NCBI GenBank assembly: GCA_963751455.1
Contig: CAVVUN010000015.1
Coordinates: 1,632,001 to 1,696,000 of the forward strand
Length of the DNA: 64,000 bases
Direction of reading: 5' to 3'
Origin: Nitrospirota bacterium
GTDB lineage: Bacteria; Nitrospirota; UBA9217
The notes beneath the pieces were generated by a model. It was not told where the DNA came from and did no database searches. It saw only the letters and a program-made list of their open reading frames with translations. The position numbers and the translations under genes were made by a program. Shown here in pieces: positions 29,252 through 60,725 of this stretch. Position 1 is the stretch's first letter; each line of letters starts with the position of its first letter.

Positions 29252-29693
29252 GGGAAGCCTATTCCAGTTTCAAATCATTGGCCTTCGCTTGAGATACCTG
29301 TCTGTATCGCCGTTCGGCAAAATGAAACCAATATCTATTCTTACATTTTCCGGGGAATAAATAGGGCAGGCCGAAAAAAGGCCTGCCCGCTTGTAGTGGC
29401 TTTTTTTACTCAGAACTTCAACCCCGGATATTATTTACGGCGTATACTTGCCGCCGGTGTTGGGATAATCAGAAGGTTCTATAGTACCGCCCCAGATGAT
29501 CATCTGTGAACCTGTCCATAACCGCACCGCCGCTCTTGCTCATCCTTTTTACAGTATTGCCGAAACGTCAACATTTATGGGAAAAAAGTATTATAGTCAA
29601 ACTTTTTTTGCAGTATTTATAGGCTAAAAATCACCTTATTATTCAAAAATTCATTGACTTTAGATGTATCCTGGCTTATTGTTACACACGAAA

Positions 29694-29783
29694 AGCTGGG
29701 GGAGCCCCGAACCATTGGGCTGAGAGGTCCTTAGAGGACGACCCTTAGAACCTGATCCGGTAGTACCGGCGTAGGGAAGGCGA
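29694..29783 (+). ncRNA. TPP riboswitch
   Basis: GGGG...CTGAGA...ACCCTTAGAACCTGATCCGGTAGTACCGGCGTAGGGAAG upstream of thi genes; promoter TTGACT-17-TATTGT at 29654-29682. Confidence 0.93.
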
Positions 29784-29806
29784 GAAGAGAAACAAGATCA
29801 CTTTTC

Positions 29807-29835
29807 AGCCGTATCCTCCGGATATGGCTTTTTTT
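29807..29835 (+). terminator. Riboswitch expression-platform terminator
   Basis: agccgtatcc-tcc-ggatatggct followed by a T run. Confidence 0.8.
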
Positions 29836-29836
29836 A

Positions 29837-30169
29837 TGGAGCGAGCCGACCGTGTCGGCGTTGAAGTATGGAAGAATATAAAACCTATGCCCATACGCCG
29901 CCTCATTTGTATCGTACGGGCTCAAAATATTTTATTACCGCTATTACCTATGAGAAATCCTACTATGCCAGATTAAATTACCTTTACTATAACCCCGTGA
30001 AGCATGTTACGTCTCGGTGCCTGAGGAGTATCCTAGGGGAAGGTATTTTTTCGCAGCCGTACCGAACAAGACCGTCTCGACAGGCTTTTAAAGGAATACC
30101 CTTTTGATCGCGTAGAGGTTGAGGAACCTTATTGAATAATGAGGACGGCAACATGGTTGCCTCGGTCCA
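29837..30169 (+). mobile_element. Internally deleted RAYT (REP-associated Y1 transposase) pseudogene between two inverted REPs
   Basis: HTPPH..YFITA.TY joined directly to RLNY.YYNPVKH, then frameshifted (G)YV..PEEYP; no HUH core; flanked by tggagcgagccgaccgtgtcggcg and cggcaacatggttgcctcggtcca. Confidence 0.75.
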
Positions 30170-30181
30170 TATAAATAAAAT

Positions 30182-31234
30182 ATGAATATCTCTCTCAATG
30201 GCGAAAAAAAAGAAATTCCCGATAAAGTGACAGTCCTTGGTCTTCTGGAGTTTCTCAAAATCCAGCACCAGAGAGTCGCGGTCGAACTGAACGAGACGAT
30301 CGTCAAGAAAGACCGTTACGGCGACACAATCATTCAAGACGGAGATTTGCTGGAGGTTGTGAGCTTTATGGGTGGAGGGAATTTGGAGCGAGCCGACCGT
30401 GTCGGCGTAAATCACGGCAACATGGTTGCCTTGGTCCATAAAGGAGTAAATAGAATGACAGACGACAAACTGGTCATCGCAGGCATAGAATTCAAGTCCC
30501 GCCTTTGGGTCGGAACGGGCAAGTACAAAGATTTCGCGGAAACGAAAAAGGCGATCGAGATGTCCGGAACTGATGTGGTCACGGTCTCTGTCCGGCGTGT
30601 GAACATCATCGATAAGGGCAAAGAGAACCTTCTCGACTATATCGACCCGAAACTGTACAAGATATTGCCGAATACTGCCGGGTGTTATACTGCCAAGGAT
30701 GCGATCCGCACCGCGATGCTTGCGGCCGAGGCGGGCATCACGAAGCTTGTCAAGCTCGAGGTGATCGGCGACCAGAAGACGCTTTTCCCGGATAACGAGG
30801 CGACACTCGAAGCTGCAAAAATCCTGCTGAAGGAAGGCCTTATTGTCCTGCCCTATACGAGCGACGACCCGATCATGGCCAGAAAACTGGTTGACCTGGG
30901 GTGCCCGGCGATCATGCCGCTCGCTGCACCGATCGGTTCCGGGCTCGGTATCAGGAACCCTTACAATATCATGATCATCATGGAGACCGTAAAAGTGCCG
31001 ATCATCGTCGATGCCGGCGTGGGCACAGCTTCCGATGTTGCGCTTGCTATGGAGCTTGGCTGTGACGCGGTGCTGCTGAACACCGCAATCGCCGGCGCCC
31101 AGGACCCAATCGCAATGGCGGAGGCGATGAAGTACGGCGTGCTCGCGGGTCGGCTGGCATTCAAGGCTGGAAGGATACCGAAGAAACTGTATGCTACTGC
31201 CAGCAGTCCGATCGAGGGAATTATCGGGAGCTGA
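30182..31234 (+). CDS. thiG: ThiS-ThiG single ORF (sulfur carrier plus thiazole synthase); ThiG also has its own RBS and ATG at 30455
   Basis: ThiS VAVELN...EVVSFMGGG, a 25-aa linker, then [34 protein letters not shown]. Confidence 0.93.
30384..30438 (+). repeat. REP doublet (REPIN) inside the thiS-thiG ORF
   Basis: Same two ends as 29837..30169 with a spacer of a few bp. Confidence 0.85.
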
Positions 31235-31244
31235 GAAATGACTT

Positions 31245-31331
31245 ATTTCAAATTGCAAAATTGTAAATTGGAAATTTCAAAATGGAGTAACGCTTCTCGC
31301 AATATGCATTTTGCAATATGCAATTTGCAAT
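31245..31331. repeat. Inverted TGCAAA/TTTGCA heptamer array between thiG and thiE
   Basis: tttcaaattgcaaaattgtaaattggaaatttcaaaat ... tgcattttgcaatatgcaatttgcaat. Confidence 0.75.
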
Positions 31332-31947
31332 GAACTTAGATTTTAACCTCTACCTCATTACCGACCGAAAGCAGACGAAATTACCGCTTATCGAGGCTGT
31401 GACGCTTGCATTGGAGGGCGGTGTACGCGCGATCCAGCTCAGGGAAAAGGACCTGAAGATCCGTGAGCTTCTTGGCCTTGCCCGGGAACTGAGGGAAATC
31501 ACGAAACGCTTCAGCGCCCGGTTGTTCATAAATGACAGGGTAGACGTCGCTGTTGCGGTTGATGCGGATGGAGTACATCTCGGAAAGGATAGCATGCCTC
31601 CTGCTGCTGTCCGCAGAATAGCGGGAAATCGCCTTCTTGTTGGTGTTTCAACGCATACGCTTGAAGAAGCAAAGACAGCACAGACAGCGGGAGCTGATTT
31701 TATTACCTTTGGCCCGGTTTTTTTTACACCTTCCAAAGCACAGTTTGGGGATCCAGTGGGATTGGAATCATTAAATTTGATTAAAAAATCAGTTTCAGTG
31801 CCAATATTTGCCATTGGTGGCATAAAAAGTGGGAACGCGAAGCAAATTATGGATACCGGTGTCGATGGCGTCAGTATGATTTCAGATATTTTCGGATCAA
31901 ACGATATCCGCCAGGCAGCTGAACAAATTATAAACGAAATCACCTGA
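31330..31947 (+). CDS. thiE: Thiamine-phosphate synthase
   Basis: LYLITD, QLREK, INDRVDVA, GVHLG, GVSTH, FAIGGI. Confidence 0.96.
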   Translation: MNLDFNLYLITDRKQTKLPLIEAVTLALEGGVRAIQLREKDLKIRELLGLARELREITKRFSARLFINDRVDVAVAVDADGVHLGKDSMPPAAVRRIAGNRLLVGVSTHTLEEAKTAQTAGADFITFGPVFFTPSKAQFGDPVGLESLNLIKKSVSVPIFAIGGIKSGNAKQIMDTGVDGVSMISDIFGSNDIRQAAEQIINEIT

Positions 31948-32056: not shown

Positions 32057-33349
32057 ATGACCCAGATTCTTGAAGCACGCAAAGGAAACATTACCCCCGA
32101 AATGGAGGCCGTGGCCCGGGCAGAAGGCGTCAGGCTCGATCATATCGTAGAATGTGTGGAAAACGGCACCATCGTCATTACCCGGAATGCGCTTCATACA
32201 TCGATCAGCCCTCTCGGGATCGGCAGGGGGCTGAGGACCAAGGTAAACGCAAACATAGGCACATCCAAGGAACGTATGTCCGTGGATGACGAGATCCTTA
32301 AGCTCAAGGCCGCGGTTTCCGCCGGCGCCGACGCTGTAATGGACCTTTCAACAGGCGGGCCGATCATCGAGATCCGGAAAAACATCCTGCAGCATTCTAC
32401 AGTCGCCATAGGCACCGTACCGATCTACCAGGCGGCGGTCGAGACGGTGGAGCAGGGGCTTCCGATAGTGCAGATGGACCCCGAGACGCTCTTTCGGGTG
32501 ATCGAGCAGCAGGCGGAAGAGGGCGTGGATTTCGTGACCGTGCACTGCGGTGTGACGATCGGGAGTGTAGAGCGGCTGAAGCGGCAGGGAAGGATCATGG
32601 ACGTTGTCAGCCGTGGGGGAGCATTCCATCTCGAATGGATCATCTTCAATGAAGCCGAAAATCCTCTGTATACCCAGTACGACCGGCTTATCGAGATCGC
32701 AAAAAAATACGACGTTACGCTGTCGCTCGGAGACGGGATGAGGCCCGGCTGTCTTGCCGATGCGACCGACCGGTCCCAGATCGAGGAACTGATTACACTG
32801 GGCGAGCTGCGGGACCAGGCGCACGAGGCTGGCGTACAGGTGATGATCGAGGGTCCGGGCCATGTTCCGATCAACCAGGTGGAAACAAACATCAAGATCC
32901 AGAAAGAACTGTGCAAGGGCGCGCCCTTCTACGTGCTCGGTCCTCTGGTGACCGATGTCGCGCCAGGGTACGACCACATAACCTCGGCAATCGGGGGAGC
33001 TATCGCAGGGGCCGCGGGCGCGGACTTCCTCTGTTACGTGACGCCGTCCGAGCACCTTCGTCTGCCGGACCTCGAGGATGTGCGCGAGGGGGTGATAGCA
33101 TCCCGGATTGCAGCTCACGCCGCGGATATCGCAAAGGGTGTCAAGGGCGCGATGGACTGGGACAGGGAGATGGCCCGGCGACGCAAGGCCCTGGATTGGA
33201 AAGGCCAGATAGAACTGTCGATCAATCCCGAGCGCGCGCGGAAACTGCGAGAGTCAAGCATGCCCAAAGAATCGGACGTCTGCACCATGTGCGGCGAATT
33301 CTGTTCGATGAAGGGCGTGAGCGCCTATCTCAAAAAAGAGGTAAAGTAA
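32057..33349 (+). CDS. thiC: Phosphomethylpyrimidine synthase
   Basis: KVNANIGTS, MDLSTGG, LSLGDGMRPG, EGPGH, CTMCGEFC. Confidence 0.97.
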   Translation: MTQILEARKGNITPEMEAVARAEGVRLDHIVECVENGTIVITRNALHTSISPLGIGRGLRTKVNANIGTSKERMSVDDEILKLKAAVSAGADAVMDLSTGGPIIEIRKNILQHSTVAIGTVPIYQAAVETVEQGLPIVQMDPETLFRVIEQQAEEGVDFVTVHCGVTIGSVERLKRQGRIMDVVSRGGAFHLEWIIFNEAENPLYTQYDRLIEIAKKYDVTLSLGDGMRPGCLADATDRSQIEELITLGELRDQAHEAGVQVMIEGPGHVPINQVETNIKIQKELCKGAPFYVLGPLVTDVAPGYDHITSAIGGAIAGAAGADFLCYVTPSEHLRLPDLEDVREGVIASRIAAHAADIAKGVKGAMDWDREMARRRKALDWKGQIELSINPERARKLRESSMPKESDVCTMCGEFCSMKGVSAYLKKEVK

Positions 33350-34434: not shown

Positions 34435-35202
34435 ATGATCAAAGTTCTCTCCATAGCGGGTTCCGATCCTTCATCCGGTGCCGGGATACAGGTCGATCTC
34501 AAGACCTTTCAGGCGCTCGGCGTATTCGGGATGGCAGTGGCGAGTTCGGTAACAGAACAAAACAGCAAAGGAGTCTCGGCGACCGCTTCCATATCGTCAC
34601 GCATGCTCTCAAAGCAGCTCCAAACCCTCTTATCCGACATCAAACCGGACGCAGTCAAGACCGGAATGCTGTTGACACGGGGAAATGTCGAGGCAACAGC
34701 AGCTTCACTGACAAAATTTAAGATCAGGAACGTTATTATCGATCCTGTCATCCGTTCCACCTCGGGCCGTGCTCTTTTAGAACTCGATGCGGTCTCTTCC
34801 CTCAAAAAGCGCCTTTTTCCGTTAGCGATCGTCATAACTCCGAATATCCCGGAGGCTGAAGCGATTACCGGCTTGCCGATAAAGAGCCGGAGGGACATGG
34901 ATTATGCGGCCGGCATGCTTCTCGACACCGGACCTGCGTATGTTCTTATAAAGGGCGGCCATTCAGCAGGCCCCGCAACAGACACGCTGTATGGCGGTAA
35001 AACCGTAATGAGTTTTTCCACACCGAGGCGCAGGGGGCAATTTCACGGCACCGGCTGCGTGCTTTCCTCGGCAATAGCAGTGTTTATTGCCCGGGGATAT
35101 CCTGTGGAAAAGGCCGTGGAAAAAGCGAAACAATTTGTGGATAAGATGTTGAAAACCGCGAAGTATGTCGGAAAAGCAAAAACCAGATACTTTCAATTCT
35201 GA
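34435..35202 (+). CDS. thiD: Hydroxymethylpyrimidine/phosphomethylpyrimidine kinase
   Basis: LSIAGSDPSSGAGIQ.DLK, KTGML, TPNIPEA, KGGH, HGTGC. Confidence 0.95.
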   Translation: MIKVLSIAGSDPSSGAGIQVDLKTFQALGVFGMAVASSVTEQNSKGVSATASISSRMLSKQLQTLLSDIKPDAVKTGMLLTRGNVEATAASLTKFKIRNVIIDPVIRSTSGRALLELDAVSSLKKRLFPLAIVITPNIPEAEAITGLPIKSRRDMDYAAGMLLDTGPAYVLIKGGHSAGPATDTLYGGKTVMSFSTPRRRGQFHGTGCVLSSAIAVFIARGYPVEKAVEKAKQFVDKMLKTAKYVGKAKTRYFQF

Positions 35203-36004: not shown

Positions 36005-36127
36005 ATTTGAAATTGAAGAATTAAGTGCTCAGGAATTGAAAAATGCATCCGGTACACTCCTGAATCCGCAAACCGGAAAAGCTTTTTAGCCGCAGAGAAC
36101 ACAGAGGCGATATCGAATCTGGAATAA

Positions 36128-36293
36128 TCCTAAAAACGGCATTTGAACACGGATGAACACGGAAACAGCGGATCAAAACAATGTGATAGAGCAAAAAGCC
36201 ATCTCGCCTTTTGGGTGAATCCATTACTGTTCGTAACTTCCTATAAATCCGTGTTGATCAGATTTTATCCGTGTCCAACTGCTTTTTTCAGGA
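36128..36293. mobile_element. MITE-like element, twin of 313..478
   Basis: Near-identical sequence with TAA on both flanks; sits inside a ccgcagagaacacagag...ctctgtgg palindromic repeat. Confidence 0.8.
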
Positions 36294-36347
36294 TAATTCC
36301 TCTGTGGCACTTTTCTGATTTGTGTTGCAGCTGACTCGATCATTGCT

Positions 36348-55777: not shown

Positions 55778-58700
55778 ATGAAGAAGATTGAAAACAGCAA
55801 GCTGTACAGCGTGGACGATCTCAAACAAACGCGCGACGCCATGGACTTCATGGCGAACCTCCTGCAGTCCTCCACGGAGTATTCCATCATCGGCAAGGAC
55901 CTCGACGGAAAGGTCCTGCTCTGGAACGAGGGCGCCCGCCGGATTTACGGGTACGACTCCGAGGAAGTGGTCGGCAAGGCGAACTCCTCCATCCTCCACA
56001 CCGAGGAAGACGTCAAGTCCGGCAAGCCTCACCAGATGATAGATGCGGCCCTGCGCGAGGGTAAATGGGAAGGCACGATCAACCGGCGCAGGAAGAACGG
56101 GGAGCATCTTCAACGCGCGCGTCGTCATCACCCCCCGGCGGGACGAAGCGGGCAAGCCCATAGGCTTTCTGCTCATCTCGAAGGACATCTCGAACGAGAT
56201 GCGCTTTACCGAGCAGCTCAGGAAGGCGAAGCTCTTCGACAGCGCCATCGTGTCGAACGCCCAGGAGGCGGTGGACTTCATCACGAACATCCTCGAGTCC
56301 TCCACCGAGTATTCGGTCATCGGTAAGGACCTGGACGGCAAGATCCTGCTCTGGAACGAAGGCGCCCGGCGTCTCTACGGGTTCGAGCCGGAAGAGGTCG
56401 TGGGCAAGGCCAACTCCTCGATCCTCCATACGGAGGAGGACGTGGCCACGGGAAAACCCCGGGAGATCCTGGACGCGGCCCTGCACAACGGCAAATGGGA
56501 AGGCACGATCACCCGCCGCAGGAAAAACGGCGAGCTCTTCAAGGCCCGGGTCGTCATCACCCCCCGCCGCGACTCGCTCGGCCGGGCCATCGGCTTCCTG
56601 CTCATCTCGAAGGACATCTCGGACGAAATCCGGCTCACCGAACAGTTAAAGTCAACCCAGTTTTATACCCGGTCGCTCATCGAATCGAACATCGACGCTC
56701 TCATGGCCACGGACCCGCTCGGCATCATAAGCGACGTGAACAAGCAGATGGTGACCCTGACCGGCTACACGCGGGACGAACTAATCGGCTCTCCGTTCAA
56801 GAACTATTTCACCGATCCCGAGCGTGCGGAGGAAGGCATCAAGCTGGTGCTGCGCGAGGGCAAGGTCACGAACTACGAACTCACCGCCCTTTCCAAGACC
56901 GGCAAGAAAACGGTGGTCTCCTACAACGCGTCCACGTTCCGCGACGCCGAGGGCAAGCTCCAGGGCGTGTTCGCGGCGGCCCGCGACATTACCGAGCAGA
57001 AAGAGCTGGAGCAGAGGCTCCGCGAGTCCGAAGCTTACAACCGCGGGCTCATTGAGGCCTCGGTGGACGGCCTGATCACGGTCGATCCCACGGGCTCGAT
57101 CTCCGACGTGAACGCGCGCATGTGCCAGATGTCGGGCTATACCCGGGAGGAACTTACCGGCACGCCCTTCATCGATTATTTCGTGGACAGCGAACGTGCG
57201 GACTCGGGCGTCCGTCAGACCTTCGATCAGGGGGTGGTCACGGATTACGCGCTTACCATGGCCACCCGGGACGGCAGGCAGCTGATCGTGTCGTTCAACG
57301 CGTCGGTGTTTAAAGACCCCTCGGGAGAGGTGCGCGGGATCTTCGCCTCCGCGCGCGACATCACCGATCAGGCGAGGCTCCAGACCCAGATCTCTGAAGA
57401 ACGGGCTTACAACCGGGGTCTCATCGAGGCTTCCCTGGACGGCCTGATCACGGTGGATCCCATGCTGAACATCACGGACGTGAACGAGACCATGTGCCGC
57501 ATGGCCGGCTACGCCAGAAAGGAACTCATCGGCTCGCCGTTCCCGGACTATTTCACCGATGCCAGGCGGGCGGCCGAGGGTGTCAGGCTCACCCTCGACA
57601 AGGGGGCCGTGACCAACTACGAGCTTACCCTCCACAGCAAAGACGGAGCGGAGCAACTGGTCTCCTTCAACGCCGCCATATTCAAGGACGAGGCCGGCGC
57701 GGTGCGCGGGATCTTCGCCAGCGCCCGTAACATCACGGAGCAGACGAAATTACAGGCCCAGCTTGCCGAAGAGCGGGCGTACAACCGCGGCCTCATCGAG
57801 GCCTCCGTGGACGGCCTGGTCACGGTCGACGAGGCCATGCTGATCACGGACGTGAACGAGACCATGTGCCGCATGGCCGGCAGGACCAGAAACCAGATCA
57901 TCGGGTCTTCGTTCCCCACTTACTTCTCCGAACGGGACCTGGCGGCCGAGGGCGTGCACCTCACGTTTAAAGAAGGGTCCGTCACCAACTACGTTTTGAC
58001 CCTGCAAGCCGTGAAAGGGCAAAAGGTGCCGGTCTCTTTCAACGCGGCCGTGTTCAAGGACGCCTCCGGCAAGGTGCGCGGCATCTTCGCCTCGGCCCGC
58101 GACATCACCGAGCAGAAGAAGCTCGAAGCCCAGCTCCAGGCCTCGCAGTTCTACACCCGGTCGCTCATCGAATCGAACATCGACGCACTCATGACCACGG
58201 ACCCGGTCGGCATCATCACTGACGTAAACCAGCAGATGGAGGCCCTTACCGGCCATACCCGTGAAGAGCTGATCGGCTCTCCCTTCAAGAACTTCTTCAC
58301 CGAGCCGCAAAGGGCCGAGGAAGGCATCAAAATCGTGGTCCGCGAAGGCAGGGTCACGAACTACGAACTCACGGCCAGGAGCAAACAGGGCAAGAAAACG
58401 GTCGTGTCCTACAACGCCGCCACGTTTGCCGACCGCGATAGGAAGCTTTCGGGTGTGTTCGCCGCAGCCCGCGACATCACCGAACAGAAAAAACTGGAGC
58501 AGCAGTTACGGGATTCCCAGGCGTACAACCGGGGCCTCATCGAGGCCTCCGTTGACGGCCTCATCACCGTGGACCCCGAGGGCATCATCAGCGACGTTAA
58601 CGACCGCATGTGCCAGATGAGCGGCTACACCCGGGGCGAGCTGATCGGCACGCCGTTCTCCGACTATTTCACGGACCCGGCCCTGGCCACCGCGGGCGTC

Positions 58701-60725
58701 AAGGAAACCTTCGAGAAGGGGATCGTGACCGAGTACGCGCTGACCCTGATTTCCCGGACTCGTCGATTCCTGCAGGTGTCGTTCAACGCCTCGGTGTTCA
58801 AGGACCCGTCCGGCAGCGTGCGCGGCATCTTCGCCTCCGCCCGCGACATCACGGATCGCGTCCGCCTTGAAGAGCAGCTTCGTGAGCAGCAGACGTATCT
58901 CCGCGGGCTCATCGAGTCCTCGGTGGACGGCCTCATCACCGTGGACCCCGAAGGGTTCATCACGGACGTAAACGAGCAGATGTGCCGCATGACCGGGTAC
59001 AGCAGAGACGAGTTGATCGGGTCGTCCTTCAGGCAATACTTCACCGAACCCCAGCGGGCCGACGTCGGCGTCAAATCCACCTTCGCCCAGGGCGTGGTCA
59101 CAAACTACGCCCTGGTCCTCAAAACAAAAACCGGCCGGAAGGCCACGGTGTCCTTCAACGCGTCGGTCTTCCGCGCGGGAGACGGAAGGGTGCAGGGCAT
59201 CTTCGCCTCGGCCCGCGACATCAGCGAACAGGCCCGGCTCCAGACCCAGCTCGTGGATCAGCAGGCCTACAACCGGTCGCTGATCGAAGCCTCCGCGGAC
59301 GCGCTCTTCGCCATTGCGCCCGACGGCGCGATCACGGACGTGAACGAGGAAGCGACCCGGCTCACCGGCTACTCGCGGAAACACCTGGTCAACTCCGGGT
59401 TCGCGGGATACTTCACCGAGCCCCTTCGCGCGAGCGAAGGCGTCAGCCAGACGCTCGCGCAGGGCCGCGTGCTCGCGTACGAACTGGTCCTGATCACGCG
59501 CCAGAATAGAAGGATCGCGGTCTCCTTCAACGCGGGCGTATTCTCCGACGCGGCGGGAAAACAGCTCGGCATCCTTGCCGGCGCCCGCGACATCACGGAC
59601 CAGAAGAAACTGGAGCAGCAGCTTCGCGATCAGCAGTTCTACTCCCGGTCCCTGATCGAGTCCAACATCGACGCGCTCATGACCACGGACCCGGTGGGAA
59701 TCATCACGGACGTGAACCAGCAGATGGAGGCCCTGACCGGCTACAACCGGGAGGAGCTCATCGGCGCGCCGTTCAAGACCTACTTCACCGACCCCAAGCT
59801 GGCCGAGGAAGGCATCCGGCTCGTGCTCAGGGAAGGCAACGTTACGAACTACGAGCTCACCGCCAGGAGCAAGCAGGGCAGGGAAACGGTCGTGTCCTAC
59901 AACGCCACCACGTTCGCGGACCGGGACGGAAAACTGCAGGGCGTGTTCGCCGCGGCCCGGGACGTGACGGAACGCAAGCGTTTCGAGCAGACGCTGCAGG
60001 AGAAGAGCGTTGAAATGGAGAACGCCAACCTGTCCAAGGACCGCTTCCTGGCCAGCATGAGCCACGAGCTCCGGACCCCGCTAAACGCCGTCATCGGGTT
60101 CACCGGCACGCTGCTCATGAAGCTCCCCGGGCCTTTGACGAGCGATCAGGAAGGCCAGCTCCAGAACATCTCGACCAGCGCCAAGCATCTGCTTCTGCTC
60201 ATCAATGATCTGCTGGATCTGGCCAAGATCGAGTCGGGCAAGGTCGAGCTCAAGCTCGAACCCATCTCGTGCCAGAGCATTGTGCAGGAAGTGGCTTCGA
60301 CACTCCTGCCCATGGCGGCCAGCAAGGGCCTCAAGCTCACCGTCATCGTGCCGGACAGAGAACTGGTGCTGAATACGGACCGGCGGTCCCTTTCCCAGGT
60401 CCTCTTGAACCTCACCTACAACGCCATTAAATTTACCGAAAAGGGCGAGGTGAAGCTGGAGCTGAGGCACAACCACCACGGCGGGCTCGTGCGGATCGAA
60501 TTCCGCGTGATCGACACGGGCATCGGCATCAAACCCGAGGACCAGGCAATGCTCTTCCAGGCGTTCACGCAGGTGGATTCCTCGAGCGCACGCCGTTACG
60601 AAGGCACCGGCCTGGGCCTGCACCTGAGCCAGAAGCTCGCCGAGCTCCTGAACGGCCGCATCTCCTTCAAGAGCGACTACGGCAAGGGGAGCGAGTTTAT
60701 GATGGTGTTGGAAGAGCAGCGGTGA
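55778..60725 (+). CDS. Cytoplasmic histidine kinase with 11 PAS domains; +1 frameshift near 56100-56107
   Basis: PAS1 starts in ORF 55745 and continues in ORF 56043; ends with SHELRTPL, DTGIG and GTGLGL. Confidence 0.85.

Follow-up and report, generated by a model that had tools for sequence, protein, structure and literature searches.

According to the usual teaching, ThiS, the sulfur carrier of thiamine synthesis, has a free Gly-Gly at its end, but in 111 of 152 Nitrospirota genomes a tail is encoded behind it. Adenylation and thiocarboxylation of free ThiS are the established pathway. The locus described here lies in a window of 64,000 nucleotides from a Nitrospirota bacterium (the whole stretch of DNA that was analysed), and it raises the question of how a ThiS that reads without a stop into ThiG can reach that free form, and how such a fusion came about. 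The answer that we hold to be probable is that thiS, having no stop codon, reads through a repeat-filled spacer into thiG, that a JAMM protease likely cuts after Gly66 and frees ThiS, and that the fusion is a tolerated accident. Taken singly, the fusion is a curiosity, and each of its elements has precedent; the part worth testing is the lineage-wide occurrence of ThiS tails together with their link to JAMM.

The fused frame and its repeat-coded linker

The fused frame comprises the following features.

30182-31234, + strand: fused ThiS-linker-ThiG open reading frame, 350 aa, no internal stop
30182-30379, + strand: ThiS sulfur carrier, 66 aa, with a Met-Gly-Gly-Gly end and no stop (TIGR01683, Pfam, invariant columns)
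30380-30454, + strand: former intergenic spacer read in frame as the linker, 75 nt, 25 codons
30384-30438: repeat doublet, two inverted 25-nt hairpin arms with a 5-nt spacer
30441-30446, + strand: AAGGAG ribosome-binding site of thiG, 8 nt 5' of its ATG (30455)
30455-31234, + strand: ThiG thiazole synthase, 259 aa (Pfam PF05690)

Residues 4-66 of the frame match Pfam ThiS (PF02597, 53.1 bits, cut-off 22.5) and residues 99-343 match Pfam ThiG (362.9 bits, cut-off 23); the ThiS part also scores 75.6 bits against TIGR01683 (cut-off 37.45), and ThiG is 86-93% identical to that of family relatives. In the product, the Gly-Gly of the ThiS carrier lies inside the chain, which continues without a break into the partner enzyme ThiG: 284 residues lie beyond the Gly-Gly, which is not encoded as a free C-terminus. 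Because the spacer is 75 nt long, a multiple of three, and is open in this frame, the tail continues into ThiG; the other two frames of the spacer close after 9 and 19 codons. The sequence-only reading, in which ThiS runs without a stop through Met-Gly-Gly-Gly into ThiG, is borne out by the open frame and by two Pfam domains above their cut-offs, and its proposal that thiG keeps an AAGGAG and an ATG at 30455 agrees with the ribosome-binding site listed above. Among the 39 family genomes in which thiG was located (this genome counted), 33 have an AGGAG, GGAGG or GAGGA word 5' of it. ThiS-ThiG fusions occur in many proteobacteria (Iyer, Burroughs and Aravind 2006, PMC1779556), and the present one is like those described in the available part of that paper in its order of N-terminal ThiS, internal Gly-Gly and ThiG. 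Unlike them, it has a 25-aa linker that is mostly repeat-coded, it keeps the thiG start, and it is found in one genome.

The linker had also been read as mostly a REP doublet, and this holds, since 55 of its 75 bases are the doublet. Each of the two arms contains a 6-bp hairpin, and the folds have z of -2.3 and -2.9 relative to shuffled sequence. A genome-wide search that allowed up to 4 mismatches gave 55 arms at 39 sites, and 16 of the sites are doublets. A transposase gene is flanked by arms in three copies, of which the first is intact, the second is interrupted by a stop and the third is a deleted remnant. The intact copy (179 aa, elsewhere on the same contig) scores 96.4 bits against NF047646 (cut-off 80), which makes it a REP-associated tyrosine transposase. 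Given this family and the transposase that its arms flank, the linker doublet is not a chance resemblance. The remnant lies just upstream of thiS, with an arm on either side.

29837-29861, + strand: upstream copy of the left repeat arm, with 0 mismatches to the one in the linker
29868-30135, + strand: REP-associated tyrosine transposase remnant between the two upstream arms, internally deleted and frameshifted, its start and end matching the intact 179-aa copy
30145-30169, - strand: upstream copy of the right repeat arm, with 1 mismatch to the one in the linker; it ends 12 nt 5' of the start of thiS

These form a shrunken transposase element (arm, deleted gene, arm; 29837-30169) between the riboswitch terminator and thiS; a Pfam search of the remnant gave no match. 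With the doublet in the linker, the element leaves thiS bracketed by the repeat, and relatives G004 and G006 likewise carry an arm 5' of their thiS. Short palindromes in many copies, mostly intergenic and often in inverted doublets, fit the description of REPs and REPtrons, and they fit as well the looser "TIRtron" description in the available text of PMC3733652. Both arms begin TGGA, and the GTAG or CGTC end tag of the two described REP super-families was not found in them. In that text, Di Nocera et al. (2013) describe REP dimers inside open reading frames, where they code for 20-30 aa, and repeat ends that often supply stop codons. The family here is like the REPtrons and TIRtrons described there in that short palindromic repeats in dimers flank a tyrosine transposase; it is unlike the REPs described there in its TGGA arms, its low copy number (55 arms) and a dimer that sits between genes read as one. 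A second repeat-coded C-terminal tail is found in larE (TIGR00268, 38477-39340, + strand), which reads 19 codons through an arm of the same family, in the same frame as the thiS linker (MELADRVGV...), and then stops 5' of purD.

Only one contig on record has the 350-aa sequence, and the junction rests on one assembly. One base may be missing at the junction, in which case the true gene would stop after Gly-Gly or have a short out-of-frame tail. A single missing T after Gly-Gly would indeed give a stop right there, none of 40 family relatives is fused, and small deletions do occur in this assembly: with 1460 ORFs from 1.2 Mb of two relatives as queries, we compared 541 orthologous genes (544 kb), of which 21 are broken; of the 32 frame breaks in these, 28 are deletions of one base. 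Against such an error, the 110 genes compared on the contig of the fusion (107 kb) have 2 frame breaks, both in 1 gene, and the 23 genes compared within the window (24 kb) are free of them. In addition, both linker arms match relatives' arms in length, so that only about 25-30 junction bases could hide an indel, for which our own estimate by rate is 0.1-1%. We consider a misassembled junction quite improbable, and the result on lineage-wide tails would stand even then, because the two other frames still yield tails. Elsewhere in the genome, one-base deletions break housekeeping genes on contigs C9, C1 and C8, with about 1 per 17 kb overall, and split genes reported from this genome call for comparison with reads.

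ThiS tails among relatives

The DNA 3' of the ThiS Gly-Gly was read in 152 Nitrospirota genomes, one row each, the relatives being labelled uncultured Nitrospirota. A genome with two ThiS-like genes was counted by one row, and 14 of the 152 rows are not shown beside thiG. Thirteen genomes with thiS unfound, unlisted or unfetched stand outside the set, the JAMM-less G062 and G156 among them, and loci L086-L109, which partly duplicate genomes already counted, were kept out of the counts. Of the 40 relatives from the family, 31 have a ThiS that continues for 1-26 aa beyond Gly-Gly, and in the other 9 it stops there. The tails have no shared sequence, and several are coded by short tandem repeats. 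At the family level compared here, the ThiS-ThiG fusion is not fixed in a clade: it is seen in 0 of the 40 relatives, and this genome is the sole fused one.

The proposal that a mobile repeat created the fusion is not supported by the comparison of junctions. The same fusion is absent from the relatives, and the linker repeat itself is present at several of their junctions: in G004, G006 and G087 it lies directly after Gly-Gly and is read in the two other frames, giving tails of 18, 9 and 10 aa and no fusion, and in L086, which has the closest ThiS (82%), the repeat follows Gly-Gly and the stop is kept. Moreover, 28 of the 31 tailed family relatives are without the repeat. The repeat is therefore rejected as the cause of the lost thiS stop; it supplies linker sequence which, by chance, has no stop in the frame of thiS. 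In four relatives (G015, G017, G025 and G030) the thiS frame likewise crosses the entire spacer and enters thiG, there in another frame, although the split thiG matches of G025 and G030 mean that their sequences may be error-prone. This genome is thus the 1 in-frame case of 5 whole-spacer read-throughs, near the one in three expected.

A gene tree of thiS and thiG for the family (G087 not in the tree) does not place the repeat-bearing junctions in one clade, but with deep support of 35-74, one old repeat insertion and several look alike in it. A metagenome scan for the pattern of Gly-Gly followed by the repeat gave 6 loci, none of them fused; 3 repeat the G004 and G006 junction sequences, in L082 the end of thiS is followed by one arm and the tail is 36 aa long, and the remaining 2 lack ThiS and match by chance. 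Searches of protein sets for further long ThiS forms returned one protein each, neither of them ThiS-ThiG; this is weak evidence of absence, because fusions hide in ThiG clusters, the present one among them.

Other ThiS-ThiG fusions were found in Nitrospirota (G100 and G130, with 0-1 linker residues) and in Bacillota (L134 and L137), and the linkers of these four have 0-3 residues. Such recurrence, like the "many proteobacteria" of PMC1779556, could speak for an adaptive fusion, one that fixes ThiS and ThiG at 1:1 or keeps both together until the JAMM cut, with the repeat-coded linker recruited for it. For the present locus we give this a very slim chance: the fusion is in one genome only, thiG has not lost its ribosome site, the arms in the linker do not differ from free copies of the repeat and bear no sign of protein-level adaptation, and the other four fusions have linkers of only 0-3 residues. 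The fusion is probably neutral here, and not a new protein. The tails as encoded are short, with a median of 10 versus 16.5 and 12 for the two frames of those spacers that are not used (p 0.028). Long ThiS tails, and fusions with them, may thus be under mild counter-selection, which gives assembly error a larger share.

Probable trimming by a JAMM protease

The idea that ThiS is rescued by proteolytic maturation is the best reading of the locus and has comparative support, in that tails go with JAMM; the cut itself is a step that we infer. A search of the genome for JAMM and thiF genes found an intact JAMM/MPN+ gene on contig C6 (35960-36394; PF14464, 74.7 bits, cut-off 25) and three full-length ThiF/MoeB-family genes; Bacillus subtilis, taken as a control, gave no Prok-JAB match. 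The JAMM gene lies in an operon with the order MoeB-like E1, JAMM, CysO-like carrier. Its residues E27, H81, H83, S91 and D94, which make up the catalytic Glu and the His-x-His...Ser..Asp zinc motif, are invariant in 25 homologues, and its nearest named solved structure is JAMM1 (5LDA). Three ThiS-family carriers are encoded: ThiS-ThiG, a MoaD fused to MoaE, and the CysO-like carrier ending GG-R, and the Gly-Gly ends of all three are blocked. A second thiS was looked for and rejected, as the two other PF02597 matches are MoaD-MoaE and the CysO-like carrier, and the genome has one TIGR01683 match. The MoaD-MoaE fusion, with its internal Gly-Gly (contig C15, L031:1492-2166, outside the window), is likely to be another substrate of JAMM. 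The CysO-like carrier next to JAMM ends in tails of varied sequence in 13 of the 13 loci with a readable end (this genome and 12 relatives).

Tailed ThiS and the JAMM gene occur together in two phyla. JAMM is present in 142 of 151 Nitrospirota genomes, and ThiS is tailed in 109 of 145 with JAMM versus 2 of 7 without; four of the five untailed JAMM-less Nitrospirota belong to one family. Among 44 mostly Bacillota genomes, a set that left out 10 Streptomyces loci (all untailed, and outside the JAMM search) and 2 Nitrospirota loci, ThiS is tailed in 21 of 27 with JAMM versus 2 of 17 without (Fisher p 3e-5, phylogenetically uncorrected). When both sets are pooled, tailed ThiS is found in 130 of 172 genomes with JAMM and 4 of 24 without. 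For example, in a well-supported clade of 11 Lachnospiraceae, five are tailed and have JAMM and six are untailed and lack it, the six forming one branch. An independent-pairs test on a 43-row tree gave 3.3-3.4 pairs in the same direction and 0.1-0.2 in the opposite one (p 0.25), from too few pairs.

The tail might be removed by other means, either by another peptidase or by ribosomes that stall, drop off or shift at the hairpins, followed by a carboxypeptidase. Four tailed genomes have no JAMM match (G052, G148, L133 and L142, all drafts), the available part of PMC4326299 leaves the MoaX protease unidentified, the repeat doublet folds better than shuffles, and the genome has two further, weaker Prok-JAB matches. 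We nevertheless judge such a route unlikely, as JAMM is present in 130 of the 134 tailed genomes, 28 of the 31 tailed family relatives are without such a hairpin repeat, and a 284-residue tail needs an endopeptidase. The two weaker Prok-JAB matches each pair with a long ThiF-domain protein (C5:45373-47671 and C11:72484-75143), a layout that makes these loci candidates for E2-E1/JAB defence-type operons.

Under the JAMM reading, the protease, kept for the adjoining CysO-like carrier, would also trim ThiS in trans, and this trimming would have made the thiS stop codon dispensable long ago. With the stop dispensable, ThiS tails would be whatever spacer DNA follows, often repeats. Two forms of ThiG would then arise, one from its own start codon and one by the cut, the latter longer by 25 residues at its N-terminus, and freed ThiS would be adenylated by one of the three ThiF/MoeB-family enzymes and then thiocarboxylated. 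The evolutionary path implied, should JAMM be the trimmer, would run from the protease first to the loss of the stop, then to a repeat in the spacer and to fusion by chance of frame.

Similar logic is found in Mec/CysO, HcyD/HcyS and QbsD/QbsE of cysteine and siderophore pathways, in which a ubiquitin-like carrier with residues past Gly-Gly is trimmed by a JAMM protease. In Mec/CysO-type systems the protease and carrier are neighbours in one pathway. The C6 operon resembles these, with the difference that the same protease would also serve ThiS from another locus; no JAMM gene was found beside thiS in 80 loci of about 3 kb.

Cleavable fusions have been described for molybdopterin. In the MoaD-MoaE (MoaX) fusions of Mycobacterium tuberculosis and Deinococcus radiodurans, a cut at Gly-Gly is required (PMC4326299, PMC8832034, as given in the available parts of both), and the Deinococcus fusion is cut by the JAMM protein DR0402 (PMC8832034). 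The present locus is like MoaX in that a sulfur carrier is fused to its partner enzyme in a genome that has an intact-motif JAMM and a MoaD-MoaE fusion of its own. MoaX is a fixed fusion with demonstrated cleavage; here the pathway is that of thiamine, the cleavage is inferred and the linker is recent spacer DNA. The locus would work like a MoaX-type cleavable fusion and is not a fixed member of that type. For ThiS, Iyer et al. predicted that a JAB domain cleaves off fused ThiS or MoaD and frees the C-terminus, and the available part of their paper reports that JAB genes were not seen in thiamine neighbourhoods (PMC1779556). Our case is unlike the fusions in that part of PMC1779556 in that short random ThiS tails are the rule in a lineage and the JAMM link is in trans. 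Literature searches, in a collection with few subscription papers, gave no report of ThiS tails tracking JAMM, nor of a repeat-coded ThiS-ThiG linker, and they are weakened by the collision of the name "ThiS" with the word "this".

A broader proposition, to which we give even weight for and against, is that one JAMM is the general C-terminus trimmer of all sulfur carriers in most Nitrospirota and some Bacillota. It would free thiS from needing a stop, mobile and tandem repeats would write random tails on an essential protein, and thiamine synthesis would hinge on a deubiquitinase-like enzyme of another operon. This would amount to a neutral, recurrent route to ThiS-ThiG fusions, with the present locus caught at birth, its old ribosome site and repeat still legible. 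If JAMM is indeed the trimmer, thiamine synthesis would depend on a ubiquitin-style maturation that operon-based annotation has missed, the many natural tails would map the low selectivity of JAMM for residues after Gly-Gly, and the 2006 prediction for JAB would gain a concrete enzyme-substrate pair.

The thi operon and the rest of the window

The fused gene belongs to a thi operon with the following further features.

29688-29795, + strand: TPP riboswitch aptamer heading the operon (Rfam RF00059, 64.2 bits, gathering 54.3)
29807-29836, + strand: hairpin and T run resembling a terminator, the likely expression platform of the riboswitch (by match to a consensus alone; 1 found versus 1.4 expected in shuffles)
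31318-31947, + strand: thiE, downstream in the operon
32057-33349, + strand: thiC, downstream in the operon
34435-35202: thiD-like kinase, after thiC

ThiS could be dead, in that the read-through blocks it, it stays uncut, and the cell imports thiazole or thiamine or uses another carrier. This had been offered earlier as a ThiS inactivated by loss of its stop, and the evidence goes against it. ThiS here is the only TIGR01683 match in the genome and keeps all 10 invariant columns, with G65 and G66 invariant in 27 sequences. Its pN/pS is 0.14-0.20 against 8 relatives, in pairwise comparisons with pS near saturation that are blind to very recent loss. By these measures ThiS is under purifying selection. 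The transposase remnant between riboswitch and thiS could be taken as a sign of decay, yet the operon and riboswitch are intact and tails are the family norm. The lack of thiH and thiO points the same way as the remnant, but it is common to 18 of 18 family relatives, which mostly keep thiS-thiG: searches with NCBIfam models, whose controls gave matches, found neither gene in this genome or in those relatives. A dead ThiS is, in our view, highly improbable. With thiH and thiO not found, the thiazole route is incompletely accounted for in the family, which may make dehydroglycine by an unrecognised enzyme.

In two genera (L018, L019, L021, L022, L025 and L026) the spacer between thiS and thiG is 475-646 nt long, and the long spacers that were read (L018, L019, L021 and L026) hold a conserved ORF of about 110 aa beginning MEKK. 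This ORF has no Pfam match and is fused in frame to ThiS in P0018; it may account for the missing thiazole step or be a passenger.

Repeats of other kinds are found elsewhere in the window. A unit of 372 nt (124 codons) is repeated at least eight times at 56613-59888, and there is a 430-nt duplication at 55835-56645; these are probably tandem PAS-type domains of a sensor protein. A direct repeat of 173 nt, 99% identical, is present at 310-482 and 36125-36297, 35.8 kb apart, and short intergenic repeats of other families (TCTGCG-type and TTGCAA-type) are dispersed across the window.
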